From Bacillota bacterium (GTDB taxonomy: Bacteria > Bacillota > Desulfotomaculia > Desulfotomaculales > JBFMEU01), in assembly GCA_040753155.1 (NCBI GenBank), contig JBFMEU010000003.1:5045-69044 (forward strand): a stretch of DNA of 64,000 nucleotides. The letters are read 5' to 3'. Below the pieces are notes generated by a model. The model worked only from the letters and a program-made list of their open reading frames with translations. It was not told where the DNA came from and did not search any database. The translations under genes and the position numbers were made by a program. Every line of letters starts with the position of its first letter. Positions within the stretch are counted from its first letter, which is position 1. Below are positions 689-61,045 of this stretch, piece by piece.

Positions 689-736
689 ACCTGCCCCACC
701 TCTACACTATCCTGAAAATACATTTGTTTGGGGATC

Positions 737-869
737 TTATCACTGAACTAATCCGCCCTAAGACCCCCGCCTCTGTAGGCGGCGGGTTTCAAAGGGCGGT
801 TAAGTCCAGTATGGACTCGGCTAACATTCAGAGGGGGTTGAATCCCCCTCTGAATGAAGTCTCGTTCAA
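737..869 (-). repeat. Family A structured repeat, copy A1 (inverted relative to the other copies)
   Basis: Near-identical reverse complement of 1897-2029. It contains the 13-bp hairpin CATTCAGAGGGGG/CCCCCTCTGAATG. Its terminal TTGAAC supplies the TGA stop of the 866-1774 gene. Confidence 0.9.
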
Positions 870-1896: not shown

Positions 1897-2029
1897 TTGA
1901 ACGAGACTTCATTCAGAGGGGGATTCAACCCCCTCTGAATGTTAGCCGAGTCCATACTGGACTTAACCGCCCTTTGAAACCCGCCGCCTACAGAGGCGGG
2001 GGTCTTAGGGCGGATTAGTTCAGTGATAA
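1897..2029 (+). repeat. Family A structured repeat, copy A2 (reference copy)
   Basis: 133 nt. Hairpin 1910-1941 has a 13-bp stem. Hairpin 1949-1963 pairs AGTCCA/TGGACT. Hairpin 1980-2000 pairs CCCGCC/GGCGGG and is enclosed by AACCGCCCT/AGGGCGG(A)TT (1965-2016). The closing pair is TGAAC/GTTCA (1898-1902 / 2018-2022). Confidence 0.9.
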
Positions 2030-2393
2030 AGCGTATCCTGACAGAATAATCTAATAAACATTGTGACTATAAATTAAATTTTCGACACTCTGGTATGATC
2101 TCCTTTTGAACAATCTTTTAAAACATACCACCGGAATCAAGATCCCAGATCTTTTTGTGGAAACAACCGGTAATTTAAAGGATTTTCTTAATTCTTCACG
2201 AAATTTAAGCTAGAAACAAAGCGCCGGAAGCCCGAACCCTGTGAACATACAGCCCGGCAAAAGGCTTTACAGCAATGACCAGGACGTCAGCCCATGGGTC
2301 ATTTTCTTTTAAGACATTTTTAAAAGCTAAATTGGGAATTATTTATTTAACTGCCCTTAACTGACAGTAAATTTGACTGCCTGGAAGGAATGA

Positions 2394-5545: not shown

Positions 5546-5590
5546 GCATCAGGCGTCAGGTAAAAGAAAAACTCCCCTGCGAGGAGATTC

Positions 5591-5763
5591 TATCTTCGCA
5601 CAGCCTGTAAGACCCCGCCCTCTTAGGTCGGGGTCTTACAGGCTGCAAACTCGAAATAAGTGCGACTAAGGTTTAGCGGTCAGGGGACACACCTCCTTCG
5701 GAGGAATGTCCCCAACGTATGGGTTAAAACCCCACCTGAACCAAGTCTTCTTTATCTTCGCAC
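5591..5763 (+). repeat. Family B structured repeat, copy B1 (with a 37-nt hairpin insert and a restart of the 5' end)
   Basis: Shares its core with 12203-12332 and 15464-15692. It has an extra perfect hairpin AGCCTGTAAGACCCCG/CGGGGTCTTACAGGCT. After the terminal TTTAT the first 8 nt (CTTCGCAC) repeat. Confidence 0.85.
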
Positions 5764-7974: not shown

Positions 7975-8353
7975 AAAAGCACGGCCGTAAGCGAGATTCT
8001 GTTTCGGTAGTCATCCATCTAGAAAATCCCGGCTTTCACCGGCATCTCCTCCCCTTTAACGGGGTGCCCCTACCCGCAGCAAAGCTGCCTATTTGGGTTG
8101 CACGCTGGCGGAGTTTACCCTTGCACTCACCGGTCACCCGGTGAAATGGTTTCTGTGGCACTTTATGGCTACTGGAAACTCCCAAGAGCCTCTTTGGCCG
8201 TCGTCAGGTCGCCCTGCCCCGGCTTGCGCCGGGCACCATTTTACACCGGCTTGTAAAGCCGCTGTGCGTGTCTCGACTTTCCTCTGCCTGCCGTTAACCA
8301 GCCCTGCAAAAAGCGCCTGATTCCAGCAAACAGCGACTACCCACCGTACTTTT
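7975..8353 (-). ncRNA. rnpB: RNase P RNA, bacterial type A
   Basis: The reverse complement contains the universal blocks AGAGGAAAGUC (P4 5' strand), GGUAAACUCCGCC, CAAAUAGG and CUAGAUGGAUGACUACCGAAACAGAAUCUCGCUUA. P2 pairs GGUAGUC/GACUACC. P1 pairs AAAAGUACGGU/GCCGUGCUUUU. The ends are approximate to about 5 nt. Confidence 0.9.
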
Positions 8354-10390: not shown

Positions 10391-10715
10391 ATCCTTCCAT
10401 ACTTTACCTGATTGCTGTTAAAAAGATAAACCTGACGTTTAAAATGAAAAATGCATCCGTGAGTAATGTACAAATTATACTTCTAATTCTATCCGCATTG
10501 AATTAAAGAGTCAAAAAATAACTAAAGAGCCTTAATCCCAGCCATTGAATTAAGATGTTTGATAAAGGCATCAGCTTGCTCTATTAATGCAGGTGGATTT
10601 GTTCCAAAAGGTGGTTTAGAACTCTCCCTGCACGGTGACAGTGGTTAAATGAGGAGCTATAATGATGATAGGGAGTATCAGCGTGGGCATTGGCCAGGTA
10701 TTATATCTACGCCCT

Positions 10716-10742
10716 TTGAACGAGACTTCATTCAGAGGGGGG
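10716..10742 (+). repeat. Family A fragment (5' 27 nt only), copy A3
   Basis: TTGAACGAGACTTCATTCAGAGGGGGG matches the A consensus and then diverges. Confidence 0.7.
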
Positions 10743-11683: not shown

Positions 11684-11758
<75 letters not shown>

Positions 11759-11761
11759 TTA

Positions 11762-11837
11762 TGGTGACCCCTACGGGATTCGAACCCGTGTTACCGCCGT
11801 GAAAGGGCGGTGTCTTAGACCGCTTGACCAAGGGGCC
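11762..11837 (-). tRNA. tRNA-Glu (anticodon TTC), CCA encoded
   Basis: Reverse complement GGCCCCTTGGTCAAGCGGTCTAAGACACCGCCCTTTCACGGCGG...GGGGTCACCA. The anticodon loop is CTTTCAC. Confidence 0.95.
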
Positions 11838-11949
11838 TCTTATTAGAGGTTGGAGATTTGAGATTGGAAGTTGGATTTTTTATTGGAATTCGCCAGGGCG
11901 AATTCCTTCTAATCTAACCTCTAGCTTCCAACTTCAAACTTCCAGTGAG

Positions 11950-12024
11950 TGGTGGGCCCACCAGGATTCGAACCTGGAGCCAGCCGGTTATGAGCCGGAT
12001 GCTCTACCGTTGAGCTATGGGCCC
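11950..12024 (-). tRNA. tRNA with CAT anticodon (elongator Met, or possibly the Ile2/lysidine type), CCA encoded
   Basis: Reverse complement GGGCCCATAGCTCAACGGTAGAGCATCCGGCTCATAACCGGC...TGGGCCCACCA. The anticodon loop is CTCATAA. It lacks the three G-C pairs typical of initiator tRNA. Confidence 0.9.
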
Positions 12025-12028
12025 ATAT

Positions 12029-12103
12029 TGGCTCCTCGAGTAGGATTCGAACCTACAACCTACCGGTTAACAGCCGGTTGCTCTACCGTTGAGCTATCGA
12101 GGA
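12029..12103 (-). tRNA. tRNA-Asn (anticodon GTT), CCA encoded
   Basis: Reverse complement TCCTCGATAGCTCAACGGTAGAGCAACCGGCTGTTAACCGGTAGGTTGTAGGTTCGAATCCTACTCGAGGAGCCA. Confidence 0.95.
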
Positions 12104-12202: not shown

Positions 12203-12332
12203 TTTATCTTCGCACAGCCTGTAAACTCGAAATAAGTGCGACCAAGGTTTAGCGGTCAGGGGACACATCTCCTTCGGAGGAATGTCCCCAACGTATGGGT
12301 TAAAACCCCACCTGAACCTTGGTCTTCTTTAT
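12203..12332 (+). repeat. Family B structured repeat, copy B2 (minimal 130-nt form)
   Basis: Layout is TTTAT-CTTCGCACAGCCTGTAA..GTGCGA..ACCAAGGTT[..GGGGACA-cATCTCC-TTC-GGAGGAa-TGTCCCC..]AACCTTGGT-CTTC-TTTAT, with nested stems visible by eye. Confidence 0.85.
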
Positions 12333-15463: not shown

Positions 15464-15692
15464 TTTATCTTCGCACAGCCTGTAAGACCCCGCCCTCGCA
15501 TAAGGAAAGGGGACACACCTGCTGAAGCTTGGGTATTTCTCTGGGGACAGGAATGTCCCTAACTAATGGGATTAACAGGCTGTAAACTCGAAATAAGTGC
15601 TACTAAGGTTTAGCGGATAGGGGACACACCTCCTTCGGAGGAATGTCCCCAACGTATGGGTTAAAACCCCACCTGAACCAAGTCTTCTTTAT
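15464..15692 (+). repeat. Family B structured repeat, copy B3 (carries a ~100-nt insert that is itself a degenerate B-core module)
   Basis: Same termini and core as B2. The insert follows CAGCCTGTAA, is closed by AGCCTGT../..ACAGGCT, and contains GGGGACACACCTG...GGAATGTCCC. Confidence 0.85.
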
Positions 15693-18185: not shown

Positions 18186-18319
18186 CCCCCGACGCTATAT
18201 TTCGCTATTTTATCTGAAAACTCCTTCAACACAAGCTAAATTATCACCATGTGCTAAGGGGGCAGATTATAATGGACCCATAAAATGAGACACGATTTGA
18301 CAGGGTGAAAGCGACACCT

Positions 18320-18545
18320 ACGTCGAAGTGGTATATAACCTTAAACCGCACAGGTCTGTATCGTAAAGCTAAAGAGCCTACGGAACTGGAGGTTAAGATT
18401 AAGCACCTGATCGACAGAATACACACAAAGCATCCATTTAAAGGAGCCAGGCGCATCAGGGATGACATCAATGCCATGAATTTGGGCTTTAAGGTAAATC
18501 GCAAGCGTATCCAGCGCTATATGAGGGATATGGGCATTCAGGTCT
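18320..18545 (+). pseudogene. IS3-family transposase (OrfB N-terminal) fragment
   Basis: ...EVKIKHLIDRIHTKHPFKGARRIRDDINAMNLGFKVNRKRIQRYMRDMGIQ matches the HTH_21 region of IS3 OrfB. No DDE (rve) domain follows. Confidence 0.7.
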
Positions 18546-18661
18546 TCTGCCCGGGCCCGTTACACGAGGTACCTGTCCCCCTGTCCCTGTCCCCCCCTAG
18601 CTTGTTGTGTTGCGTGTCACAATTGTATATAATAAAGTATATCGACTTTGGAGGTGAAAAA

Positions 18662-18949
18662 ATGAAATTTATAACGATAAGGGATCTAAAATTTAAATCA
18701 CCAGAAGTCTGGCGCCGGTTGGAAGCAGAAAAAGATCTGGTTGTCACGTCCAACGGAAGACCGATTGCCATTTTAACAGGTATAAACGAAAACAACCTGG
18801 AAGAGTCACTGGCGGCTTTACGCCGCAGTCGAGCTGTCTTAGCAGTGAATAAACTCCAGTTGCAGTCGGTAGAAAAGGGTAAGGACAAGTTTTCAATGGA
18901 CGAAATCGAGACGGAAATAGATGAAGTACGCCGGGGCCGTAGTATATGA
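18662..18949 (+). CDS. Phd/YefM-type antitoxin
   Basis: MKFITIRDLKFKSPEVWRRLEAEKDLVVTSNGRPIAILTG. GGAGGTG lies 7 nt upstream of the ATG at 18662. The ORF track fuses it in frame to the IS3 fragment. Confidence 0.8.
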   Translation: MKFITIRDLKFKSPEVWRRLEAEKDLVVTSNGRPIAILTGINENNLEESLAALRRSRAVLAVNKLQLQSVEKGKDKFSMDEIETEIDEVRRGRSI

Positions 18950-19356
18950 AGATAGTGCTCGATACAAATGTTCTGATTTCGGGTCTCTTAAAGCCTTTTA
19001 GTACTTCCGGCTTGATCGTTAGGCAGGTTGCTGAAGGAACGATCAAGATAGTATTTGATTCTCGTATTCTGGCGGAGTATCGGGAAGTATTGAGAAGGGA
19101 AAAATTTGATTTTGACACTGAATTAGTCGATATACTGTTAAACCAGATCGAAACGGAAGGGCTATTAGTTTCAGGAAAACCAATTAAAAATAAGCTTCCC
19201 GACCCAAATGACGGCCCTTTTTTGGAAGTAGCACTTGCTATGGAAAGAATCATTATTGTTACTGGAAATAAAAAACACTTTCCTGAAGTTTGTGGCAAGA
19301 TTATCGTTATGGACCCAACGCAGTTTATTGATTATCTGTCCGAACATTGTGACTAA
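18946..19356 (+). CDS. PIN-domain toxin (VapC-like)
   Basis: MKIVLDTNVLISGLL...PDPNDGPFLEVA...IVTGNKKHF. Its ATGA overlaps the antitoxin stop. Confidence 0.85.
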   Translation: MKIVLDTNVLISGLLKPFSTSGLIVRQVAEGTIKIVFDSRILAEYREVLRREKFDFDTELVDILLNQIETEGLLVSGKPIKNKLPDPNDGPFLEVALAMERIIIVTGNKKHFPEVCGKIIVMDPTQFIDYLSEHCD

Positions 19357-19401
19357 CCCAAACTATGTGATATTCGTACTGGAAAGACCGGGCCGCGCAT
19401 C

Positions 19402-19700
19402 TTGAGGCTGAGAATGCAGACTTGGTGGCCTGAAGCAAACCGGCATTGTCCACAATGTGGTTTACCGTATGATCCATTTCCAGGCGACGAGACCTCGGAA
19501 GAAATCGACTGGCAAGTAAAAGCGGAACGGGTAGTACATAGACGCAAACGCTATCACAAAACCTGCCGGTGTCTTGGAGTTCAGACTATCATTACTGCTC
19601 CCCCGCCTCCCAAAGTTATTGCCAAAGGACTATTTACTGCCGGTTGCATTGCCCGTCTATTAATAGAGAAGTACGTACTGGGCTTGTCATGGATCCTTCC
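19402..19700 (+). pseudogene. IS66-family transposase fragment (zinc-ribbon / N-terminal region only)
   Basis: CPQCGLPY..EEIDWQVKAERVVHRRKRYHKTCRC..TIITAPPPPKVIAKGLFTAGCIARLLIEKYV matches the IS66 Tnp N-region. The catalytic domain is absent. Confidence 0.7.
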
Positions 19701-19750
19701 CGCAGCGCCGACGTACCCAAGAGGTTCTTCGGTTTAACAGGGCCCGGCGT

Positions 19751-19778
19751 ATTCAACTCCTGACTCCTGAGTAGTTAC
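19751..19778 (+). repeat. Family C element, right-terminus fragment (C1)
   Basis: ATTCAACTCCTGACTCCTGAGTAGTTAC matches the right TIR of C2, C4 and C5. It abuts the AT-rich cassette. Confidence 0.75.
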
Positions 19779-19779
19779 A

Positions 19780-20160
19780 TTATAACACCTCTAGTTCGTA
19801 TCTATCATAGAAAACATTGTGTCTCATGAACTGTTGTGGTGCAAAGAAAAATAAGTATTCTCTGTCTACATCACTTGAAAAGAACGGAACTTCCAGGTAT
19901 AATTCTTCTGATTTGAACCATTTGTTCATATATTGTGAACCTATAAATTTATAGTCTAATATTGCGGCAAGTTGCACTAATCTCTTATATTCAATTTCAG
20001 AGTATTCTTCTTTCTTTTTTACTTCATAATTATATAAGTCAGCATATTTTTCAAAGTCATTATATTTTATCGCATGAAGTAACTCACTTATTTTTAAGTT
20101 GAATATTTCCAAGTTATCTAGCTTAATTATATCCTCCATGATTAATTTATTATTTAACAT
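19780..20160 (-). CDS. hypothetical protein (126 aa), second gene of the AT-rich cassette
   Basis: Its ATG lies 1 nt after the TAG of the upstream gene (TAG-C-ATG). AT-rich codon usage. No recognisable motif. Confidence 0.5.
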   Translation of the reverse strand: MLNNKLIMEDIIKLDNLEIFNLKISELLHAIKYNDFEKYADLYNYEVKKKEEYSEIEYKRLVQLAAILDYKFIGSQYMNKWFKSEELYLEVPFFSSDVDREYLFFFAPQQFMRHNVFYDRYELEVL

Positions 20161-20161
20161 G

Positions 20162-20731
20162 CTAACACCCTCTCTCGTATAGTTCTTTTAATTTCTCGAT
20201 TACTGCCCTTCTAAAGCGTCCTATTATATTACCATGCGACTTGTTTCTTTCCCTGATTTTATTAAGTATAAAATACTGTTTTAATATTATGTCCAACTGC
20301 ATTTCATTAGTAATTCCAATCTTTTTTGCTAACATTACAGCATCATTTAAGTCTTTAGACATTCTTGCTGAATACAACTTCATAGCCAGCAACTGGTCAA
20401 TTCTAGGAAAATTAATCATCATGTTAGTTAACCCTAAATTAATTAATGTCAGGTCCTCTTTTATCATATCTTGAAAAACAACGTCTTTTACTGCTGAATT
20501 TAGCCAGTTCCCTTCTATTTTACGTCTCTTAGATACTAATTTTATAGCATCTTCAACTTCTTCTTCTGACTGCATAAATACCGCGTCTATATCCTCTGTT
20601 GCATATCTTAATGCATAAGCGCACATTACAAAACCACCATAAATGTTAAGTGTTACATACTTATTTTTTGCTTTAAATACATCGTTTAGCTCTTTTAATA
20701 GTTCTAGCAACTGATTATATGTATATTGCAT
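20162..20731 (-). CDS. putative nucleotidyltransferase (DUF6036/AbiEii-like minimal NTase fold)
   Basis: 189 aa. Motifs LNIYGGFVMCAYALRYATEDIDAVF (GG-x9-R-x-T-x-DID), WLN, LLAMKLYSARMSKDLNDA. The assignment is from memory of the family pattern. Confidence 0.55.
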   Translation of the reverse strand: MQYTYNQLLELLKELNDVFKAKNKYVTLNIYGGFVMCAYALRYATEDIDAVFMQSEEEVEDAIKLVSKRRKIEGNWLNSAVKDVVFQDMIKEDLTLINLGLTNMMINFPRIDQLLAMKLYSARMSKDLNDAVMLAKKIGITNEMQLDIILKQYFILNKIRERNKSHGNIIGRFRRAVIEKLKELYERGC

Positions 20732-25050: not shown

Positions 25051-25162
25051 ATTTATCGCCCCTCACAGAGCATATATGATATACTATTTGCCAATTGCAG
25101 TTTAATAATATATATTATATGCCCGTTCAAAATTCCCTCCTTAGCCAAAAAATAATTTTTTA

Positions 25163-25368
25163 GTTACTATTCAGGTATTCAGAATTCAGGAGTCAGGAGT
25201 CAGAATGCCCTGAGAATATGCTTCCAGCAATTAGAGAAGTTTTGTTTCGTAAATATCACCGTATCCAAGATCCTTCGTAAGTATCAAGTAATATCAGCAT
25301 TCTTCAACAGAACCTTGGTTTTCTCATTCTGACTTCTGACTTCTGGCTCCTGACTCCTGAGTAGTTAT
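25163..25368 (+). mobile_element. Family C non-autonomous element C2 (internally deleted four-helix-bundle gene), TSD ATTTTTTA
   Basis: Left end is GTTACTATTCAGG..TCAGGAGTCAGGAGTCAGAAT. Right end is ATTCTGACTTCTGAC..CTCCTGAGTAGTTAT. An 8-bp direct repeat sits at 25155-25162 and 25369-25376. On the minus strand the interior reads ...GSVEEC*YYLILTKDLGYGDIYETKLL. Confidence 0.9.
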
Positions 25369-25405
25369 ATTTTTTATTTTAATTGATATATCTCTATGTC
25401 TGGCT

Positions 25406-28377: not shown

Positions 28378-28406
28378 CTCTTGAACCTCCTTATTTGGTT
28401 ATAGTA

Positions 28407-28708
28407 TATATTCAGTGAAACCGGTGTTAAGGCACGGCATTATCATCGCTCACTCCAGTGCTCCGCGCCGACAGCACCTCGGCTTGTTTCGGACCGGACT
28501 AGCGACGCTGCAAAGGCGGCGATTGATTTATCTTCGGAAGGTGCCTGCTCTCCTCAAAGCACCTTGTTCTCAAACCCGTCGCCTTAGCAGTCCGCTGGTT
28601 TCGCGCCGCAGTCCGGTTACCCTCACTGCGCCGGGTGCTGTTACCGGCGCTCCGCAAGTCGTTCGCTAACGATAATGCCGTGCCTCCACCTGGTTTGCTG
28701 AATACTTA
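28407..28708 (+). mobile_element. Family D ~300-bp TIR element, copy D1 (inside the glyQS leader)
   Basis: TIRs are TTCAGTGAAACCGGTGTTAAGGCACGGCATTATC / GATAATGCCGTGCCTCCACCTGGTTTGCTGAA, flanked by TA...TA. About 90 percent identical to D2 and D3 by eye. Confidence 0.85.
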
Positions 28709-28736
28709 CTGGTTATTTACCCTGCGCGGCCCAAAC

Positions 28737-31274: not shown

Positions 31275-31406
31275 TTGAACGAGACTTCATTCAGAGTGGG
31301 ATTCAACCCCCTCTGAATGTTAGCCGAGTCCATACTGGACTTAACCGCCCTTTGAAACCCGCCGCCTACAGAGGCGGGGTCTTAGGGTGGATTAGTTCAG
31401 TGGTAA
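31275..31406 (+). repeat. Family A structured repeat, copy A4
   Basis: 132 nt with 4-5 differences from A2. It sits directly against the truncated C3 element. Confidence 0.9.
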
Positions 31407-31470
31407 ATCTTCAAATGTTTTCGCTGGTTTTTTCATTCTGACTCCTGACCCCTGACTCCTGAGTAGTTGC
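31407..31470 (+). repeat. Family C element, right-hand portion (C3), truncated at its junction with A4
   Basis: ATCTTCAAATGTTTTCGCTGGTTTTTTCATTCTGACTCCTGACCCCTGACTCCTGAGTAGTTGC aligns with the right part of C4. Confidence 0.8.
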
Positions 31471-31563
31471 GAATACTTAGCAGTAAAGGGAGGCACGCAG
31501 TCCTCCCTTCCATTTTATCACGTTTAGAATCAGGGGCAACTGCCCTGATAATGACCGCACCCT

Positions 31564-32919
31564 TCAGCGCAGGAGGATTATCGTGGCCAGGGTAAAGTAG
31601 ATGAGCATGCTGGTCACATCCATGACCGTGGTGATAAAGGGACCGGAGGCCAGGGCCGGGTCAATGCCCAGCCGGTTGATCACCAGGGGGAACAGGCTGC
31701 CCAGCATGGTGGCCATCACCATATTGATGGCCAGGGTCAGACCCACCACCAAACCCAGCAGAGGGCTACCCTGCCAGGCAAAGCCAATGATCGCCAGCGC
31801 CAGGCCGCATACCGCGCCCAACAAAAAGCCCACCCGCACTTCCTTCCAGACGACGGAGAGAATACTCAGGGAATTAACCTCTCCCGTGGCCAGGCCCCGC
31901 ACCACCACGGCCATGGACTGGGTGGCCACGTTGCCGGGACCGCCGGCCAGGACTGTTATGAATATCGCCAGAACTGCAAGCTGCTCCAGGACACCCAGAA
32001 AGCCTTCAATGACGTTGCCGGCCAGCAGTGAGCCGCACATTAAAACCAGCAGCCAGGGCAGGCGCAGCATGGCCCTTCTAAGGGGACCGGCGTCAAGGTC
32101 CCGGGCCTCCCCGTCGATGTTGGCGGTCATGCGCAGAATGTCCTCGGTGGCCTCCTCCTGGATAACGTCCAAGACATCGTCAACGGTTACAATGCCCAGC
32201 AATTCACGGTCGTCGTTGACCACCGGGATGGCCAGGAAGTCATACTTGGCCACCAGTTTGGCCACCTCTTCCTGGTCGGTGCGCACGTGCACGGTTATAA
32301 AATTGGTGCGCATGATGTCTTCAATTAAAGTAGTTGGTCCGGCAATAATTAATTCCCGCAGGGAAATAACGCCCACCAGCTGGTTTTCCGCATTCACCAC
32401 GTAAACATAGTACACTGTCTCGGCGTCCGGCGCCGTTTTGCGCAGCACCTGGATAGCCTGCTCCACAGTGATACCCTGACGGATGGCCACGTATTCCGTG
32501 GTCATGATTCCGCCGGCCGTCTCCTCGCCATACTCCAAAAGCTCTTTGACGTCCTTGGCGTCGGCGGCCTGCATCAGACCCAGCAAGAGCTCCTTCTTGT
32601 CCCCGGGCATCTCACCCAGCAGATCGGCAGCGTCATCAGTGAACATTTCGGCCAGAATTTCAGCCGTCCGGTGTCTGCCCAGTCCCTCCAGCAGGGGCGG
32701 GACAAGATCCCGGTCCAGTTCCATAATTACCATGGCCGCCCTGTCGCTGTCCATAACCTTGAGCACCTTAACCCGCTGGGCCAGATTGATCCCGGGCATA
32801 ACCTCGGCAATATCCACCGGGTGCAGGTCCTGCAGACACTGCCGCAGTTTTTCGGTAGCCACTTCCTCCAGGCAGCTTTGCACCGTCCGGAGGGTCTCCT
32901 TGCTATACATGGGGCACAC
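31564..32919 (-). CDS. mgtE: magnesium transporter MgtE
   Basis: 451 aa with an N-domain, two CBS domains and a 5-TM C-terminal channel domain. Confidence 0.95.
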   Translation of the reverse strand: MCPMYSKETLRTVQSCLEEVATEKLRQCLQDLHPVDIAEVMPGINLAQRVKVLKVMDSDRAAMVIMELDRDLVPPLLEGLGRHRTAEILAEMFTDDAADLLGEMPGDKKELLLGLMQAADAKDVKELLEYGEETAGGIMTTEYVAIRQGITVEQAIQVLRKTAPDAETVYYVYVVNAENQLVGVISLRELIIAGPTTLIEDIMRTNFITVHVRTDQEEVAKLVAKYDFLAIPVVNDDRELLGIVTVDDVLDVIQEEATEDILRMTANIDGEARDLDAGPLRRAMLRLPWLLVLMCGSLLAGNVIEGFLGVLEQLAVLAIFITVLAGGPGNVATQSMAVVVRGLATGEVNSLSILSVVWKEVRVGFLLGAVCGLALAIIGFAWQGSPLLGLVVGLTLAINMVMATMLGSLFPLVINRLGIDPALASGPFITTVMDVTSMLIYFTLATIILLR

Positions 32920-32949: not shown

Positions 32950-33082
32950 TTGAACGAGACTTCATTCAGAGGGGGATTCAACCCCCTCTGAATGTTAGCC
33001 GAGTCCATACTGGACTTAACCGCCCTTTGAAACCCGCCGCCTACAGAGGCGGGGGTCTTAGGGCGGATTAGTTCAGTGATAA
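32950..33082 (+). repeat. Family A structured repeat, copy A5 (in the mgtE 5' UTR region)
   Basis: 133 nt, essentially identical to A2. It ends 30 nt upstream of the mgtE ATG. Confidence 0.9.
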
Positions 33083-33263
33083 ATGGCGCCGCCGGACCGC
33101 CCCTGTGAGTTATACAATTATACGCGCGACTACTTGGGCCCGCGTCCACAACACCACCTCCATTCGACAATACGGTGATATTTACAATCACCCTAACAAA
33201 TTTACCAATAAACCACCCTTTGTGTCAAGTTGTCAAGGAAACGGGCACATCAGGACCCGGTGT

Positions 33264-34798: not shown

Positions 34799-34833
34799 AT
34801 CCCCCTTGCTAGTGCCCCCAAAGCCGCTGTATA

Positions 34834-35130
34834 TATTCAGTGAAACCGGTGTTAAGGCACGGCGTTATCACCGCTCACTCCAGTGCTCCGCGCCGGCAGC
34901 GCCCCGGCTTGTTTCGGACCGGACTAGCGGCGCTGCAAAGGCGGCGATAGATTTGTAATGGAAGGCGCCTGCTCTCATCAAAGCACCTTGTTCTCAAACC
35001 CGTCGCCTTAGTAGTCCGCTGGTTTCGCGCCGCAGTCCGGTTACCCTCACTGCGCCGGGTGCTGTTACCGGCGCTCCGCAAGTCGTTCGCTAACGATAAC
35101 GCCGTGCCTCCACCTGGTTTACTGAATACT
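34834..35130 (+). mobile_element. Family D TIR element, copy D2 (overlaps the 3' end of dgkA)
   Basis: Same TIRs as D1 with TA flanks. The last codons of dgkA and its TAA stop lie in the element end. Confidence 0.85.
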
Positions 35131-35502
35131 TACAAGTCGCTGCAGGTGCGGGCCAAAGATCAGCGCCCCGGCCACCACAGCATGCAGAGCGGCCAGCAGT
35201 ACGGCCCCGGCAGCTATATCCTTGGCCCGCCCGGCCAGGGGGTTTGGTCCCGGAGAAACCAGGTCCACCACTGTTTCCACGGCGGTATTCAGCGCCTCGG
35301 CCACCAGGACCAGAAATATGGCCAGGAGTAAAAAAAGCCACTCCTCCCTGCTCAGTTCCAGCAAGCCGGCCAGCGCCAGCACAGCAGCCGTTGCCAGCAG
35401 GTGAATTTTCATGTTGCGCTGGGTAGTCACCGTCCTGGCCAGGCCGGATCCCGCCCGGTAAAAAGCCTTCCAAAAGTTTCCCCGCCACTCCACGCCCGGC
35501 AT
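35119..35502 (-). CDS. dgkA: diacylglycerol/undecaprenol kinase
   Basis: 127 aa, three TM helices, motif EALNTAVE. In the conserved ybeY-dgkA-cdd order. Confidence 0.9.
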   Translation of the reverse strand: MPGVEWRGNFWKAFYRAGSGLARTVTTQRNMKIHLLATAAVLALAGLLELSREEWLFLLLAIFLVLVAEALNTAVETVVDLVSPGPNPLAGRAKDIAAGAVLLAALHAVVAGALIFGPHLQRLVSIQ

Positions 35503-46198: not shown

Positions 46199-46377
46199 GT
46201 TACTATTCAGGTATTCAGAATGGACCGTATAGCTCATACTTCGGAAACGCCATAGATAAACGATAAATCGCAAGTACGAACAGGTGCGCCTTCTGCCATA
46301 CCAGTAATCTTCAAACGCTTTCGCTGGTTTTCTCATTCTGACTCCTGACTTCTGACTCCTGACTCCTGAGTAGTTAC
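46199..46377 (+). mobile_element. Family C non-autonomous element C4 (retains the N-terminal part of the four-helix-bundle gene), TSD ATCTTTTT
   Basis: An 8-bp direct repeat sits at 46191-46198 and 46378-46385. On the minus strand the interior reads ATGAGAAAACCAGCGAAAGCGTTTGAAGA(-1 nt)..LLVWQKAHLFVLAIYRLSMAFPKYELYG. Confidence 0.9.
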
Positions 46378-46390
46378 ATCTTTTTTATAA

Positions 46391-48548: not shown

Positions 48549-48659
48549 GTTACTATTCAGGTATTCAGAATTCAGGATTCAGAATGGACCTGTTTTCGCT
48601 GGTTTTCTCATTCTGACTTCTGACTCCTGACTTCTGACTCCTGACTTCTGAGTAGTTAC
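48549..48659 (+). mobile_element. Family C miniature element C5 (111 bp), TSD GTTCAAAA
   Basis: An 8-bp direct repeat sits at 48541-48548 and 48660-48667. Both TIRs are present, with almost no interior. Confidence 0.9.
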
Positions 48660-48804
48660 GTTCAAAACACCATTAGGAGGGCAGCCTCCGCATCTGGTGC
48701 GGCACGGCGCCCTCCTGCCGTGTTCTGGATTAATCGGTACTCAACTGTCTTGCCTGACCTCTATTTATTTTATTAAGGTTTGGCTATTCTGTCACCTATT
48801 TTTT

Positions 48805-49102
48805 ATTATTCAGTGGAACCAGTGTTAAGGCACAGCGTTATCACCGCTCACTCCAGTGCTCCGCGCCGACAACACCACGGCTTGTTTCGGACCGGACTAG
48901 CGGCGCTGCAAAGGCGGTGATAGATTTATACTGGAAGGCGCCTGCTCTCCTCAAAACACCTTGTTCTCAAACCCGTCGCCTTACTAGTCCGCTGGTTTCG
49001 CGCCGCAGTCCGGTTACCCTCACTGCGCCGGGTGCTGTTACCGGCGCTCCGCAAGTCGTTCGCTAACGATAACGCCGTGCCTCCACCTGGTTTACTGAAT
49101 GT
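48805..49102 (+). mobile_element. Family D TIR element, copy D3 (5 nt downstream of the dnaK stop)
   Basis: Aligns end to end with D1 and D2. Flanks are TA / TG. Confidence 0.85.
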
Positions 49103-49107
49103 TTACC

Positions 49108-50970
49108 CTATTTTTTATTCCCTTCATCCTTGACCTCGTAGTCGGCATCCACTACGTTGTCCTGCCGGGTGCCCTGGCCTTGATCCTGGCCATGTTCGTG
49201 GCTGCAGGTTCCGGCGCCGCAGCCGCCCCCCTGCTGCCCCGGCTGCTGGTAAATGACTGCCGAGAACTCATGCAGCAGCCTGGTGGCGGCCTCCAGTTTG
49301 GCCTTGATCATTTCGATGTCGTTGCCCTTAAGGGCCTCTTTAAGTTCATCCACCGCCTGCTGGACCTTTTGAGCCAGGGCCGGGTCAACCTTATCCTTGT
49401 TCTCGCCAAGGGTTTTCTCCGCCTGGTACACCATGCTGTCAGCCTGGTTGCGGACCTCCACCTCTTCCTTGCGCCTTTTGTCGGCCTCGGCATTTTTTTC
49501 GGCTTCCTTCACCATTTTGTCAATTTCATCGTCTTTAAGGTTGGAGCTGCCGCTTATGGTGATGCTTTGCTCCTTGCCGGTGCCCAGGTCCTTAGCCGAG
49601 ACATTGACAATGCCGTTAACGTCAATGTCAAATTTCACTTCGATTTGCGGAATACCCCGGGGCGCCGGGGCAATACCGCTCAACTGAAACCGGCCCAGGG
49701 TCTTGTTGTCCGCCGCCATGGGCCGCTCACCCTGCAGCACGTGAATGTCCACCGTGGTCTGGCCGTCCGCCGCCGTTGAAAAGATCTGGCTCTTGGATGT
49801 GGGGATGGTGGTATTGCGCTCAATGAGCACGGTATTAACACCGCCCAGGGTTTCAATGCCCAGGGAAAGGGGCGTTACGTCCAGCAGCAGGACATCCTTA
49901 ACCTCGCCGGCCAGCACGCCGGCCTGAATGGCCGCGCCCAGAGCAACACACTCATCCGGGTTAATCCCCTTATGAGGCTCTTTGCCCAGATACTTTTTAA
50001 TTGCCTCGTAAACCGCCGGGATCCTGGTGGAGCCCCCCACCAGCAGAATCCGGTCAATATCCTTGGGCTCAAGTCCGGCGTCGGCCATGGCCTGCTTGGT
50101 GGGCCCCATGGTTTTATCCACCAGATCCGAGGTCAGCTCATCAAATTTGGCCCGGGTCAGGTTAATATCCAGGTGCTTGGGCCCCTCGGCGTCCGCCGTA
50201 ATGAAGGGCAGGTTGATGTTGGTGGTATGCACGCCGCTCAGCTCGATTTTGGCCTTTTCCGCCGCTTCTTTCAGCCGCTGCATGGCCATGCGGTCCTTGC
50301 TCAGGTCAATGCCGGCATCTTTTTTAAACTCCGCCACCAGGTGATTAATCACCCGCTGGTCAAAATCGTCCCCACCCAGGCGGTTGTTGCCGCTGGTGGC
50401 CTTAACCTCAAACACGCCGTCACCCAGCTCCAGGATGGAAACGTCGAAGGTGCCGCCCCCCAGATCGAACACCAGGATGGTCTGGTCGTTGGCTTTGTCC
50501 AGGCCGTAGGCCAGAGCCGCGGCTGTGGGCTCATTGATAATCCGCAGTACCTCCAGGCCGGCAATCCGCCCGGCGTCCTTGGTGGCCTGACGCTGGGAGT
50601 CGGTGAAGTAGGCGGGTACGGTAATAACCGCTTTTTCGACCCTGGCCCCCAGGTAGGCCTCGGCGTCGGCCTTCATTTTTTGCAGGATCATGGCCGAGAT
50701 TTCCTGGGGCGTATAGTCTTTGCCGTCTATGTTAACCTTGTGGTCCGTGCCCATGTAGCGTTTGATCGACTGCACGGTACGGTCGGGGTTGCTGACCGCC
50801 TGCCGCTTGGCCACCTGGCCCACCAGGCGCTCCCCGGTTTTGGAGAAGCCGACCACCGAGGGCGTGGTGCGCCCCCCCTCGGCATTGGGAATAACCACTG
50901 CCTCACCGCCCTCCATTACCGCCACACAGGAGTTGGTTGTTCCCAGGTCAATTCCTATAACTTTAGACAC
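49108..50970 (-). CDS. dnaK: molecular chaperone DnaK
   Basis: (M)[17 protein letters not shown]... The likely GTG start at 50970 is 7 nt after GGAGGG. The ORF-track TTG at 50985 overlaps the RBS. Confidence 0.97.
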
Positions 50971-56148: not shown

Positions 56149-56191
56149 ATTCTCAAAAAGGCCTCCTTATTGGCGCAACAACTCATACCTT

Positions 56192-56390
56192 GTAACTACT
56201 CAGGTATTCAGAATTCAGGAGTCAGGAGTCAGAATACCCCGAAACTATGCTTCCAGCAATTTACTAACCTCTTGCAAGAGAAGTTTTGTTTCGTAAGTAT
56301 CACCATATCCAAGATCCTTCGTAAGTATCAAGTAATATCGGCATTCTTCAACAGAACCTTGTGCAATGTTTAAAAAACGCGAGTAGTTAC
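56192..56390 (+). mobile_element. Family C non-autonomous element C6 (retains the C-terminal ~45 codons of the four-helix-bundle gene), TSD CATACCTT
   Basis: An 8-bp direct repeat sits at 56184-56191 and 56391-56398. Termini are GTAACTACTCAGG / CGAGTAGTTAC. On the minus strand the interior reads RFLNIAQGSVEECRYYLILTKDLGYGDTYETKLLLQEVSKLLEA*. Confidence 0.9.
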
Positions 56391-56437
56391 CATACCTTTG
56401 CATTATAACACTTTGGGCAGGCCTCCGAAAAGGTATA

Positions 56438-56481
56438 TATTCAGTGAAACCGGTGTTAAGGCACGGCGTTATCACCGCTCA
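56438..56481 (+). repeat. Family D left-end fragment (D4)
   Basis: TATTCAGTGAAACCGGTGTTAAGGCACGGCGTTATCACCGCTCA, after which homology ends. Confidence 0.8.
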
Positions 56482-58515: not shown

Positions 58516-58571
58516 CTGAATTACGCTGGTTTTCTCATTCTGACTCCTGACTTCTGACTCCTGACTCCTGA
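58516..58571 (+). repeat. Family C right-end remnant (C7) fused to the 3' end of holA
   Basis: CTGAATTACGCTGGTTTTCTCATTCTGACTCCTGACTTCTGACTCCTGACTCCTGAG. The terminal GTAGTTAC is missing. Confidence 0.8.
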
Positions 58572-59599
58572 GATTGGCAGAGCTTTAAAACCAGCATTTC
58601 CATGGCCGGGTAGAAGTCCAGGCGTCCGGTCTTGGTCTTGACATCAATTTCCCCCAGGCTGTCCAGTAACTCCAAAAGCTGGGCAGTTGTGAAGTTGCGC
58701 CCCTGCTCCTGAACCTTTTTGGCCACAAAGGGGTGCGCCCCCAGCCGGGCGGCCAGTTCGGGCCCGGAACAGCCCTCCCGCCGCAGCTCCCCGGCCAGTA
58801 AAATAAGCCGGAACTGCCTGACCACCATAGCCAGGATGTAGTGGGGCTGCACCCGGCATAAAAGTAAATCCCTGATCCCCTGCAACGCTCTGGCGCACTG
58901 CTTCTCCCCGATGGCGTCAACCACCGCAAAGATACTGTCCTCCAGCTTTTCCGGCACCAGGTCCCTGACCTCCCGGGGCGTGATGGTTGTACCGGGAGCT
59001 GTATAGTTAATCAACTTCTCCATTTCCTGATACAAGCTGATCAGGCTTTTTCCGCGCCGGCGCAGCATTTCTTCCGAGGCCTCCCGCTGGATGCCCCGGC
59101 CCTCCTGCCGGGCCCGCTGCTCCAGCCAGCGGTAGATCTCCGTTGGCTTTAACAGACTGAACTCCACCACCCGGCCCTTAGCGGCCACCAATTTGTAAAT
59201 TTTCCGGCGCTTGTCCACGGCTTCCCCGGCATCGAAAACCAGGCAGGTTTCTGCCGCCGGCTGCTCCAAATAGCTCCGCAGCAAGGCCTCCCCGGGCCTT
59301 TCCCCGGACTCCCCGGCCCCGGCCCTGGCAGGGCGAAACAGCCCGGCCTGGCGGACAATGACCAGGCGCCTGGCGGCCAGCAGCGGCGGAAGGCCGGCAG
59401 CAGCCACAATGGCGTCCGGGCCGGTGCCTTCCCCGTCCAGGAGGTCCAGATTAAATTCCGCTGTGGCCGGTTCCAGCAAGATCTCCTTAAAACGGGCCAG
59501 GGCCTGTTCCCGCAGGTACACCTCAGGGCCGTAAAAGAGATACACGGGGGCAATATTCCCCCGCTTTAAGCTGTCCAGTAAATCAAGATAGTACTTCAA
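58535..59599 (-). CDS. holA: DNA polymerase III delta subunit
   Basis: 354 aa. Starts PVYLFYGPEVYL and is in the conserved position. The last 13 codons (QSQESGVRSQESE) are encoded by repeat C7. Confidence 0.9.
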   Translation of the reverse strand: MKYYLDLLDSLKRGNIAPVYLFYGPEVYLREQALARFKEILLEPATAEFNLDLLDGEGTGPDAIVAAAGLPPLLAARRLVIVRQAGLFRPARAGAGESGERPGEALLRSYLEQPAAETCLVFDAGEAVDKRRKIYKLVAAKGRVVEFSLLKPTEIYRWLEQRARQEGRGIQREASEEMLRRRGKSLISLYQEMEKLINYTAPGTTITPREVRDLVPEKLEDSIFAVVDAIGEKQCARALQGIRDLLLCRVQPHYILAMVVRQFRLILLAGELRREGCSGPELAARLGAHPFVAKKVQEQGRNFTTAQLLELLDSLGEIDVKTKTGRLDFYPAMEMLVLKLCQSQESGVRSQESE

Positions 59600-60441: not shown

Positions 60442-60745
60442 GGCTCTTACCCCCTACAGAAGATCCTGTCTTTATGGTCCCAAGGCCCGGCGATATTATG
60501 CCTTAACTATTCGTTGCCAGAAATGCAAAATCCTTTTCCGCAAAACAGGGCGACATAATTTTCAATAACCCTTGCCTGGCTGACCCGGCAGGATTTCAAG
60601 GCCTAGGGTAGAAGTATTTAGAAGTTATCCCGGGAAATGGCCCCGGAAGGGTAATTGTTCAATCCACGAAGATAAAACACTGTGGTGGTGTTTTAGAGCC
60701 ACTTCAGGGGACACTACCAGATGAGCATAAGGAGCGATGTATTAA

Positions 60746-61045
60746 ATGTCCCAGATGAAGGAACTGCCCCGGGGCAACCGGATCATCATCAGCGTACTGG
60801 GTCCCGACCGGGTGGGCATTATCGCCGGCGTTGCCAACGTGCTGGCCGCCAACAACATTAACATCCTGGATATCAGCCAGACCATTTTGCAGGAATTTCT
60901 GGTCATGGTACTCATTGCCGACATGGAAGGAAGCAAAATAGACCTGGCCACCGTCAAGGAACTGCTCAACGCCAGGGGCCGGGAACTGGGTGTGCGCATC
61001 GACGCCCAACACGAGGACGCTTTTAGTTTCATGCACCGCATTTAA
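60746..61045 (+). CDS. ACT-domain protein (UPF0237 family)
   Basis: IIISVLGPDRVGIIAGVANVLA..NINILDISQT. It is paired with the downstream UPF0210 gene. Confidence 0.85.
   Translation: MSQMKELPRGNRIIISVLGPDRVGIIAGVANVLAANNINILDISQTILQEFLVMVLIADMEGSKIDLATVKELLNARGRELGVRIDAQHEDAFSFMHRI

Follow-up and report, generated by a model that had tools for sequence, protein, structure and literature searches.

Short hairpin repeats of a Desulfotomaculia-type Bacillota genome are best explained as PATE-like mobile DNA carrying a second, nested repeat

Main

IS200/IS605 'peel-and-paste' elements and PATEs have neither inverted termini nor target duplications, and share a fixed pentanucleotide at the insertion site, an end motif of their own and subterminal hairpins (PMC7290912; PMC3119063). 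PATEs are known from Haloquadratum (PMC3119063), Halanaerobium (PMC7290912) and Geobacillus (bioRxiv 10.1101/2023.03.14.532601). For ISGst2, an IS200/IS605 element of Geobacillus, the TAM/TEM pair TTTAT/TTCAC has been shown experimentally, and the same genome also contains PATE derivatives (bioRxiv 10.1101/2023.03.14.532601).

Here we analyse Family B, a repeat in a 64,000-nt stretch of Bacillota DNA (hereafter the window) that a first-pass annotation had described as a structured element of three copies. Like PATEs, Family B elements are gene-less, fall within 60–270 nt, lack terminal inverted repeats (TIRs), carry hairpin-rich ends on one strand, insert 3′ of a fixed pentanucleotide, have their own right-end motif, occur in many copies per genome and are presumed to be mobilised in trans. 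They differ in that the searches turned up no autonomous tnpA/tnpB element whose ends match those of Family B, which leaves any parent IS hypothetical, in that minimal forms have a single hairpin, and in that one and the same motif serves as target and as terminus. We conclude, with a probability of roughly two in three, that Family B is non-autonomous mobile DNA of IS200/IS605 type, a PATE-like 'ends-only' element. It is thus best explained as a known kind of selfish DNA and not as a new RNA gene, and it carries a second, nested repeat. Resolving an apparent candidate structured RNA into a mobile-element family avoids a false RNA annotation and reveals a PATE-like superfamily widespread in Desulfotomaculia-type Bacillota and related metagenomes, with at least three subfamilies, roughly one copy per 10–25 kb here, and target and end motifs that nearly match those of the experimentally characterised Geobacillus element.

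Seven full-length superfamily members in the window

A 31-nt core of Family B, GGGGACACAYCTCCTTCGGAGGAATGTCCCC, occurs three times in the window at no more than one mismatch, with 0 occurrences expected (100 shuffles). The three copies had been placed on the plus strand, and both their positions and their strand are correct, but the set was not complete: four more full-length superfamily members are present, three of them on the minus strand. These emerged from a covariance model (CM R1) trained only on base elements of types A and B, 24 in all and taken from metagenomes, with no type D sequence, which finds seven full-length members in the window, namely B1, B2, B3 and four type D copies (E-values 3e-16 to 5.5e-7). 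Type D is homologous to the model over its full length (E = 1e-15 to 5e-12) and corresponds to the window's 'D2' repeat read on the other strand, with TTTAT on the left followed by an element of the form CACTGAACTAATCCGCCCTAAGA...TTCAGAGGGGGTTGAATCCCCCTCTGAATGAAGTCTCGTTCAA. The all-plus orientation of the three Family B copies was chance. The features of the window are as follows, with the evidence for each in brackets.

736–869, plus strand: type D copy, left flank CTTAT, element CACTGAACTAATCC...TTCAGAGGGGGTTGAATCCCCCTCTGAATGAAGTCTCGTTCAA (CM R1, 79 bits, E = 2e-15, full length)
1897–2030, minus strand: type D copy, left TTTAT, end TTCAA, right side without TTTAT (CM R1, 81.2 bits, E = 6e-16)
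5589–5593, plus strand: B1 left-flank target motif TCTAT, a one-base variant of TTTAT (sequence)
5594–5755, plus strand: B1, a full base element with one nested GGGGACA module, 162 nt (CM R1 full-length match, 82.5 bits, E = 3e-16; alignment to base elements)
5601–5645, plus strand: B1 hairpin 1 (alignment to base elements)
5665–5747, plus strand: B1 hairpin 2 (alignment to base elements)
5677–5718, plus strand: nested module in B1, CGGTC-AGGGGACACACCTCCTTCGGAGGAATGTCCCC-AACGT, between TTYAG and ATGGG of hairpin 2 (base copies without the module read GGTTCAGATGGGGTTAAAACCCC)
5751–5755, plus strand: B1 terminal TTTAT
5756–5763, plus strand: 8-nt CTTCGCAC just 3′ of the B1 terminal TTTAT, repeating the element start (sequence)
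10713–10742, minus strand: type D remnant, 5′-truncated, consisting of the 3′ half of hairpin 2 and TCGTTCAA (repeat family D12; sequence)
12203–12207, plus strand: B2 left-flank TTTAT (sequence; flank census)
12208–12332, plus strand: B2, hairpin 1 lost, one nested module at 12253–12294 (CM match, 41.3 bits, E = 5.5e-7)
15464–15468, plus strand: B3 left-flank TTTAT (sequence)
15469–15692, plus strand: B3, a base element with two nested modules, 224 nt (CM match; precise insertion relative to loci L121, L124 and L125)
15508–15559, plus strand: B3 module of the 52-nt form, in the loop of hairpin 1
15620–15650, plus strand: B3 module of the 31-nt form, in hairpin 2
31275–31407, minus strand: type D copy, left flank TTTAC (CM R1, 63.7 bits, E = 5e-12)
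32950–33083, minus strand: type D copy, left flank TTTAT (CM R1, 81.2 bits)
46263–46267, minus strand: unoccupied target, a single TTTAT (blast of joined flanks, alignment; filled in L195)

TTTAT had been reported to bound every Family B copy, reduced to TAT on the left of B1; this holds for B2 and B3, and B1 has TCTAT on its left and TTTAT as its terminal motif. The end previously assigned to B1, 5763, overshoots the true end at 5755 by the 8-nt CTTCGCAC. Judged by its sequence, this stub is probably the remnant of a tandem second copy, consistent with insertion of a new copy at an older one's terminal TTTAT. All window copies are intergenic: B1 follows ftsK, B2 lies between the sigA terminator (12383–12358, minus strand) and the promoter of a tRNA cluster (12146–12118, minus strand), and B3 occupies the gap between a dGTPase gene and dnaG. 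B2 and B3 both sit within a conserved dGTPase-dnaG-sigA-tRNA region. The window derives from an uncultivated Bacillota bacterium, and its DnaG is 100% identical to a protein annotated 'MAG: Bacillota bacterium'; the next relatives of this DnaG have 70% identity, and Desulfotomaculia about 50%.

Base-element anatomy reverses core and module

A metagenome scan for the conserved hairpin 2 sequence GGGTYAAAACCCCACCTGAA returned 96 loci with 68 distinct complete elements; the apparent invariance of inner hairpin 2 in this set is partly circular because the scan required that 20-mer. The base form of type A, the subfamily of the window, is about 121 nt long and has no GGGGACA hairpin. It is organised from left to right as follows.

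Left part: left-flank TTAT, cut, linker CTTCGCA, hairpin 1 (CAGCCTGTAAGACCCCG-loop-CGGGGATTAACAGGCTG), linker TAAACTCGAAATAAGTGC
Right part: hairpin 2 (GACTAAGGTTCAG ATG GGGTTAAAACCCC A CCTGAACCAAGTC), end TTCTTTAT, cut

Hairpin 1 starts 7–12 nt from the left cut, and 8 nt separate hairpin 2 from the right cut. Type B, a second subfamily in which TTTAT is followed by an element starting with CCGATGAATAA, aligns with type A column for column. The element start CTTCGCACAGCC and end CCAAGTCTTCTTTAT are not complementary, and the same is true of types B and D, so no subfamily has terminal inverted repeats. No open reading frame (ORF) was found within Family B elements. The ORF check and the base-element alignments therefore bear out the original view of a discrete, ORF-less element without TIRs. 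A separate 310-nt repeat in the window, D1, has TIRs of about 45 bp, unlike Family B.

Because the metagenomic base forms possess hairpin 1 and lack the GGGGACA hairpin, the roles assigned to two parts of the element have to be exchanged. The hairpin after CAGCCTGTAA that had been regarded as an optional module is the ancestral hairpin 1 of the base element, deleted in B2, and the supposedly invariant core GGGGACA..TGTCCCC is an inserted module, which 10 of the 34 type A copies lack, as do almost all copies of types B and D. The B2 deletion lies between the near-direct repeats CAGCCTGTAA and CAGGCTGTAA, and locus L182 has the same kind of deletion. Internal deletions are frequent among copies and nested insertions are tolerated; many deletion derivatives occur, the shortest consisting of TTTAT, hairpin 2 and TTTAT.

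The pairings read by eye from the three copies are present, with the exception that B3 has GTGCTA in place of GTGCGA. The B1 hairpin after CAGCCTGTAA exists, with a stem of 17 bp (CAGCCTGTAAGACCCCG / CGGGGTCTTACAGGCTG) rather than 16, its outer arm including CAGCCTG. The long-range stem, which forms the outer stem of hairpin 2, is indeed made perfect in B2 by compensating changes (ACCAAGGTT/AACCTTGGT), but this perfection is peculiar to B2, the family consensus being GACTAAGGTTCAG...CTGAACCAAGTC with a conserved internal loop.

Copies insert 3′ of TTTAT

Two pairs of empty and filled sites define the insertion point. The B3 site is empty in L121, L124 and L125, relatives with the same dGTPase-dnaG-sigA order and a DnaG 70% identical to that of the window: these read ...TTCAACCTTA(A/C)CCTAT directly followed by CATTGCCATTATCTGTAAG, and the window reads ...CCCTATTTAT, then 224 nt ending in TTTAT, then CATTGCCATTATCTGTAAG, with which a blast search of the joined flanks agrees. 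Conversely, the window carries the empty form of a site that is occupied in L195, a related metagenomic contig. Here ...GCGATTTAT directly precedes CGTTTATC, and in L195 a 263-nt type A element stands between ...GCTGTTTAT and CGTTTATC, inside a four-helix-bundle (pseudo)gene. The comparison of empty and filled sites proposed in the first-pass annotation thus shows, at two loci, precise insertion 3′ of (T)TTAT, the pairs together giving (Y)TTAT as the sequence immediately upstream. Syntenic relatives lack B2 and B3 altogether. Loci L001 and L002, from the same species, offer no empty site because their copies are identical to those of the window.

Of 61 family members, 42 have TTTAT as their left flank, and most others differ from it by one base; over 61 independent copies, the five left bases are T in 52, T in 56, T in 57, A in 60 and T in 59. 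By contrast, the 14 bases beyond the right end are unconserved in the same 61 copies. Since the terminal motif of Family B equals its target motif, Family B junctions alone are ambiguous between no duplication and a 5-bp TTTAT duplication. The homologous type D copies separate the two: they have TTTAT, TTTAC or CTTAT on the left, end in TCGTTCAA (TTCAA) and continue into unrelated bases. Since the left TTTAT of type D is paired with a TTCAA end and with no TTTAT on the right, TTTAT is a target-adjacent motif and not a duplication. From these sequences, the right-end TTTAT of Family B appears to belong to the element, which was one of the two options originally left open; the other, a 5-bp target duplication, does not agree with the type D ends. 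Head-to-tail tandems with one common TTTAT occur at L179, L161, L202 and L222, and an 8-nt stub like that of B1 occurs at L189.

The motifs of type D also invite comparison with ISGst2 of Geobacillus stearothermophilus, another Firmicute host, whose TAM is the same TTTAT and whose TEM, TTCAC, is one base off the type D TTCAA. The comparison covers these motifs, and ISGst2 differs in carrying tnpB and an omega RNA.

A covarying fold with a candidate target guide

Folded as RNA, B2 reaches −46.7 kcal/mol (z = −4.5 against shuffles); folded as DNA it has z = −3.7, and the family's hairpins fold well as DNA, with z = −3.7 to −8.6. We assessed covariation by RNAalifold and by explicit pair counting. 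In the alignment 93.4% of cells are paired, compared with 27–55% when partners are slid by one to three columns; 14 of 32 pairs are changed on both sides, and all 7 pairs of the hairpin 1 outer stem covary. Both hairpins covary, and loop and bulge sequences are conserved. Aligning many copies, as had been suggested, thus reveals strong structure-supporting covariation, which implies that the fold is selected and applies equally to RNA and single-stranded DNA.

An internal ATAA/GGATAA lies 3–4 nt 5′ of hairpin 2 and is complementary to the left TTAT(CC), with 88.9% of cells paired and one covarying pair. For the TTCAA end of type D, the candidate guide is limited to a TGAAC/GTTCA pairing in the DNA fold. 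Guide pairing in known IS200/IS605 elements is partly non-canonical.

A probable IS200/IS605-type element, presumably mobilised in trans

The PATE-like reading follows from the combination of absent inverted termini, absent duplication, a fixed pentanucleotide, an end motif of the element's own, subterminal hairpins, the internal ATAA/GGATAA as a candidate guide, and the precedent of ISGst2. The subterminal hairpins occur at both ends and on one strand. The two hairpins of Family B do not resemble each other, which counts against the reading, although the two end hairpins of Halanaerobium IS605 elements are dissimilar too (PMC7290912). In the mechanism we propose, a Y1 HUH tyrosine transposase encoded elsewhere, either TnpA or a domesticated RAYT-like relative, would bind the hairpins on single-stranded DNA and cut after the left-flank TTTAT and again after the terminal motif of the element. 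A single-stranded circle would be released and pasted 3′ of another TTTAT, leaving the target unduplicated, and the internal ATAA/GGATAA may act as the DNA guide for TTAT.

The searches found no such enzyme near the copies, which counts against the reading. Neither TnpA nor TnpB is among the best 25 of the 116 Pfam families matched by ORFs of the window, which is weak evidence of absence because just these 25 families are listed. Crude motif filters detected neither protein in 1.62 Mb around about 220 related loci, and none of about 100 right-end matches belongs to a long form with an ORF between left and right ends. A 2.98-kb spacing between a left and a right end at L197 was considered as a full-length element and ruled out, as no transposase lies inside. 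It had been allowed that the copies might prove to be fragments of a larger known IS, and this did not materialise: 0 of about 100 copies adjoin a transposase. A blastn comparison of base elements with plasmids and phages gave no match, scans of viral contigs gave one uninformative match each, and a literature search with sequence strings returned only unrelated primer matches.

Active IS608 and ISDra2 show a strong replication-strand bias. Four of the seven window copies lie on the C-rich plus strand and three on the minus strand, and of 101 copies the G-rich strand of the locus carries 59 and the C-rich strand 42; by these crude proxies no replication-strand bias was found, which also weighs against the reading, and old insertions may have lost the signal. 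Should a partner TnpA or TnpB be found, the family would supply naturally occurring minimal substrates in a graded set, the smallest being a single hairpin with TTTAT on either side, that would help to study how little DNA a Y1 transposase needs.

Two other kinds of repeat can be set beside Family B. BOX elements of Streptococcus pneumoniae (boxA-boxB(n)-boxC) are likewise modular intergenic repeats with strong folds and a variable number of internal modules, but they are linear cassettes of one family without a TTTAT insertion rule, whereas Family B varies by nesting of another repeat and by hairpin deletions. A classical MITE derived from a DDE transposase was rejected, given the lack of TIRs and of a duplication in type D.

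Alternative explanations

The conserved, covarying fold with its conserved loop and bulge sequences would also suit copies that are primarily RNA genes, either guide (omega) RNAs that serve, in trans, a TnpB or IscB nuclease whose gene lies elsewhere, hairpin 2 then forming the scaffold end and the right flank supplying the guide, or structured small RNAs of another sort. PATEs reportedly often encode omega RNAs on which proteins act in trans, and the TTTAT motif is that of a characterised TnpB (bioRxiv 10.1101/2023.03.14.532601). We nevertheless judge this explanation, which is compatible with a mobile element and does not exclude one, to be improbable. No promoter-like site was found within or before the copies. 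Their orientation relative to flanking genes is random (19 same/same versus 18 opposite/opposite), so that read-through transcription would reach either strand. A single G-U pair had been taken as a hint of a plus-sense RNA; over 24 copies there are 13 G:T and 21 A:C mismatches, with no G:T excess, and neither this count nor the random orientation sustains the hint. Rfam searches of the window and 32 related loci gave no match over any copy at gathering or permissive thresholds, as the first-pass annotation had anticipated in seeing no known RNA family; the best Rfam 15 score in this set was 18.6 bits for RsmY, on the opposite strand, against a gathering score of 57. (The Rfam search of the window does identify a class B RNase P RNA at 7983–8348.) Motif filters found no TnpB-like ORF in related loci totalling 1.6 Mb, and the frequent internal deletions and tolerated nested insertions likewise speak against an RNA gene.

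Mobility by another mechanism, through a tyrosine or serine recombinase acting at a TTTAT core on a circular form or a transposase that always duplicates TTTAT, would account for TTTAT at both Family B junctions with one TTTAT at the empty site, for tandems that share exactly one TTTAT, and for the lack of a Y1 transposase by motif filters in the related loci. It is distinctly improbable in view of the homologous type D right junction without TTTAT and of copies whose two junctions differ, TTTAC left and TTTAT right at L019 and TCTAT left and TTTAT right for B1; moreover, a DDE enzyme would lack its inverted termini, and the sequence to the right of the element has none of the conservation that a recombinase core site would need. 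Hardest to credit is that the copies are host-selected cis elements, such as terminators, mRNA stabilisers or protein-binding sites of the kind suggested for certain REP/BIME sequences, their repetitive look being incidental. Their intergenic location, their very stable hairpins, the placement of B2 and B3 within the conserved dGTPase-dnaG-sigA-tRNA region, and stand-alone GGGGACA hairpins near TATAAT boxes or ribosomal-protein genes would fit such a role. Yet syntenic relatives do without B2 and B3, the L195 copy disrupts a (pseudo)gene, orientation is random, no U-tract follows the hairpins in window copies, and orthologous conservation of individual copies across species was not seen.

A second repeat nested in Family B

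The GGGGACA hairpin is a second, independent REP-like repeat that has colonised two sites within Family B, the loop of hairpin 1 and the position between TTCAG and ATGGGG of hairpin 2. To survey it beyond the window, we scanned 185,579 species-representative genomes for AGGGGACACAYCT and GGAATGTCCC separated by 5–35 nt, which identified at least 117 loci in at least 71 assemblies, all from Bacillota, with Desulfotomaculum, Pelotomaculum, Desulfocucumis, Syntrophomonas, Dethiobacter, Desulfosporosinus, Formimonas, Tissierella, Sedimentibacter and others among the matches listed. The closed genome of Candidatus Formimonas warabiya (CP017634) also carries the module. In most of the genomes scanned that have it, the module stands alone, and it is therefore an independent unit. 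Conservation extends over TAAGGWM-AGGGGACACACCT...AGGAATGTCCCC-AAYKNATG, with an apex that varies from a tetraloop to about 30 nt or is occupied by another module. The fold comprises a 7-bp stem, a 2x2 mismatch (a C-A/A-A internal loop) and a covarying second stem, which is Watson-Crick in 16 of 16 and 14 of 16 cases with 3 and 2 pair types, respectively. Some modules are solitary, others form direct tandem arrays that repeat every 62 nt (L057, L117 and L060), and still others are stacks in which left and right half-sites differ in number (L081, L107, L058 and L022), stacked half-sites also being present at L084. About 120 of 160 module matches fall outside ORFs, and orientation relative to flanking genes is random (42 versus 32).

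The best analogy is with REP/RAYT systems. Like REP/BIME sequences and REPINs, the module is a short, imperfect and intergenic palindrome; conserved bases precede its stem on the 5′ side, its copies number in the hundreds and no transposase was found nearby. REPs are lineage-specific and typically form inverted pairs, whereas the module retains 23 identical bases in many classes of Bacillota and is arranged singly, in direct tandem or as stacked half-sites. Motif filters found no HUH/Y1-like ORF in 826 kb around the 117 module loci, and the same loci revealed neither a flanked RAYT gene nor inverted REPIN/BIME pairs. By this analogy the module appears to behave like a REP-type repeat, a likeness that does not extend to its cross-class conservation and its stacking. 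A more speculative view, which we regard as rather unlikely, would make the module a distinct new class of mini-element, or a host-factor binding site, that preferentially settles in the loops of other hairpins including those of PATEs, as a parasite of a parasite, and grows by stacked half-sites; in parallel, Family B copies would encode guide RNAs through which a TnpB encoded far away protects each of them, in trans, against loss. Small hairpin inserts within IS605 right ends have been reported in Halanaerobium (PMC7290912).

Several other identities for the module were considered and set aside. The 62-nt tandems are not a CRISPR array, as their units are whole hairpins arranged head to tail with no unique spacers. 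A resemblance of GTTGGGG to the GTTRRRY of integron attC sites was discounted, the flanking AAC having no complementary partner and no cassette ORFs being present. The CUGAAG of the 52-nt module misfits the core of a hammerhead or other ribozyme and has no Rfam match, and the internal loop, being C-A/A-A and not tandem G-A, is no K-turn. Mini-ORFs in tandem modules, one array of which has overlapping ATGA start and stop codons, are broken in frame by module lengths of 29 to 58 nt. Present in at least 71 species-level genomes, the module is the more curious part of these elements and may deserve a study of its own. In other genomes, some stand-alone GGGGACA hairpins lie directly after TATAAT boxes or before ribosomal-protein genes.

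Filled and empty forms of a Family B site

Window positions 46263-46267 on the minus strand are the empty form of a site whose filled form, on a related metagenomic contig (L195:75-338), holds a 263-nt Family B element. The element lies there inside a four-helix-bundle (23S rRNA IVS-type) gene, and the window counterpart of this gene is a frameshifted remnant. At B1, the terminal TTTAT is followed directly, at 5756-5763, by 8 nt identical to the element's own start (CTTCGCAC), and then by unrelated sequence. Locus L189 has this 8-nt stub too, and its occurrence in both suggests either aberrant excision that recurs or a point at which tandem copies are truncated.

A sister subfamily and unrelated repeats

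Family B has a sister subfamily in the 134-nt type D repeat, which shares its architecture and has TTTAT on the left side and TTCAA at its right terminus; the repeat is probably one of the other families listed in the first-pass annotation. Type D copies stand on either side of both an epimerase gene and mgtE.

Type D repeats and flanked genes in the window
736-869 (+), type D
866-1774, epimerase gene
1897-2030 (-), type D
10713-10742, type D remnant
31275-31407 (-), type D
31564-32916, mgtE
32950-33083 (-), type D

Separate from and unrelated to Family B, a classical MITE-like repeat of ~310 nt carries long inverted repeats at its termini (TATTCAGTGAAACCGGTGTTAAGGCACGGCGTTATC ... GATAACGCCGTGCCTCCACCTGGTTTACTGAATA). 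Multi-copy four-helix-bundle protein genes, whose start is ATGAGAAAACCAGCGAAA..., are directly preceded by runs of the heptamer CTGACTY (read as AGTCAGG/AGTCAGA on the opposite strand). The same heptamer array is present at L087, a locus that also carries the GGGGACA..TGTCCCC module.

Other repeats in the window
28404-28715, 34829-35140, 48802-49110, ~310-nt repeat
56433-56481, fragment of the ~310-nt repeat
25316-25375, 31425-31484, 46325-46384, 48600-48659, 58527-58586, also 19756-19780, CTGACTY runs
25155-25317, 56184-56361, additional shared blocks

The GGGGACA module in other genomes

At least 71 species-level Bacillota genomes (loci L004-L120) contain the GGGGACA..TGTCCCC module, with 23 invariant bases, either singly, as 62-nt direct tandems, or as stacked left halves followed by right halves in unequal number (examples, L057:7207-7381; L117:2317-2555, reverse strand; L081:1676-1800; L107:560-720). 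In some Clostridia a TATAAT box lies 4-6 nt before the module, a position that would make it the 5′-terminal part of a transcript. Low-GC genomes repeatedly have the module, in opposite orientation, just upstream of the RBS of several ribosomal-protein-cluster genes. These placements (two groups of loci: L007:2489, L018:1927, L034:4336, L087 on the minus strand, L035:5229; and L048, L049, L103, L116, L119) hint that the module acts at the RNA level in those lineages. Within the window, a weak look-alike (AGGGGACAC...AAATGTCCC) at 60705-60753, covering an ACT-domain gene's RBS and start codon, may be a chance match or a decayed copy.

Gene content and RNA genes

A toxin-antitoxin-like block sits between a LigT-like gene and ppdK, which adjoin without it in two syntenic relatives of the B3 region (L121 and L124). 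The tRNA cluster has a strong promoter-like site at 12146-12118, just beyond B2.

Genes in the window
7983-8348 (-), class B RNase P RNA
11686-12103 (-), cluster of four tRNA genes
18305-20731, toxin-antitoxin-like gene block (HTH_21/PhdYeFM fusion, PIN, others)
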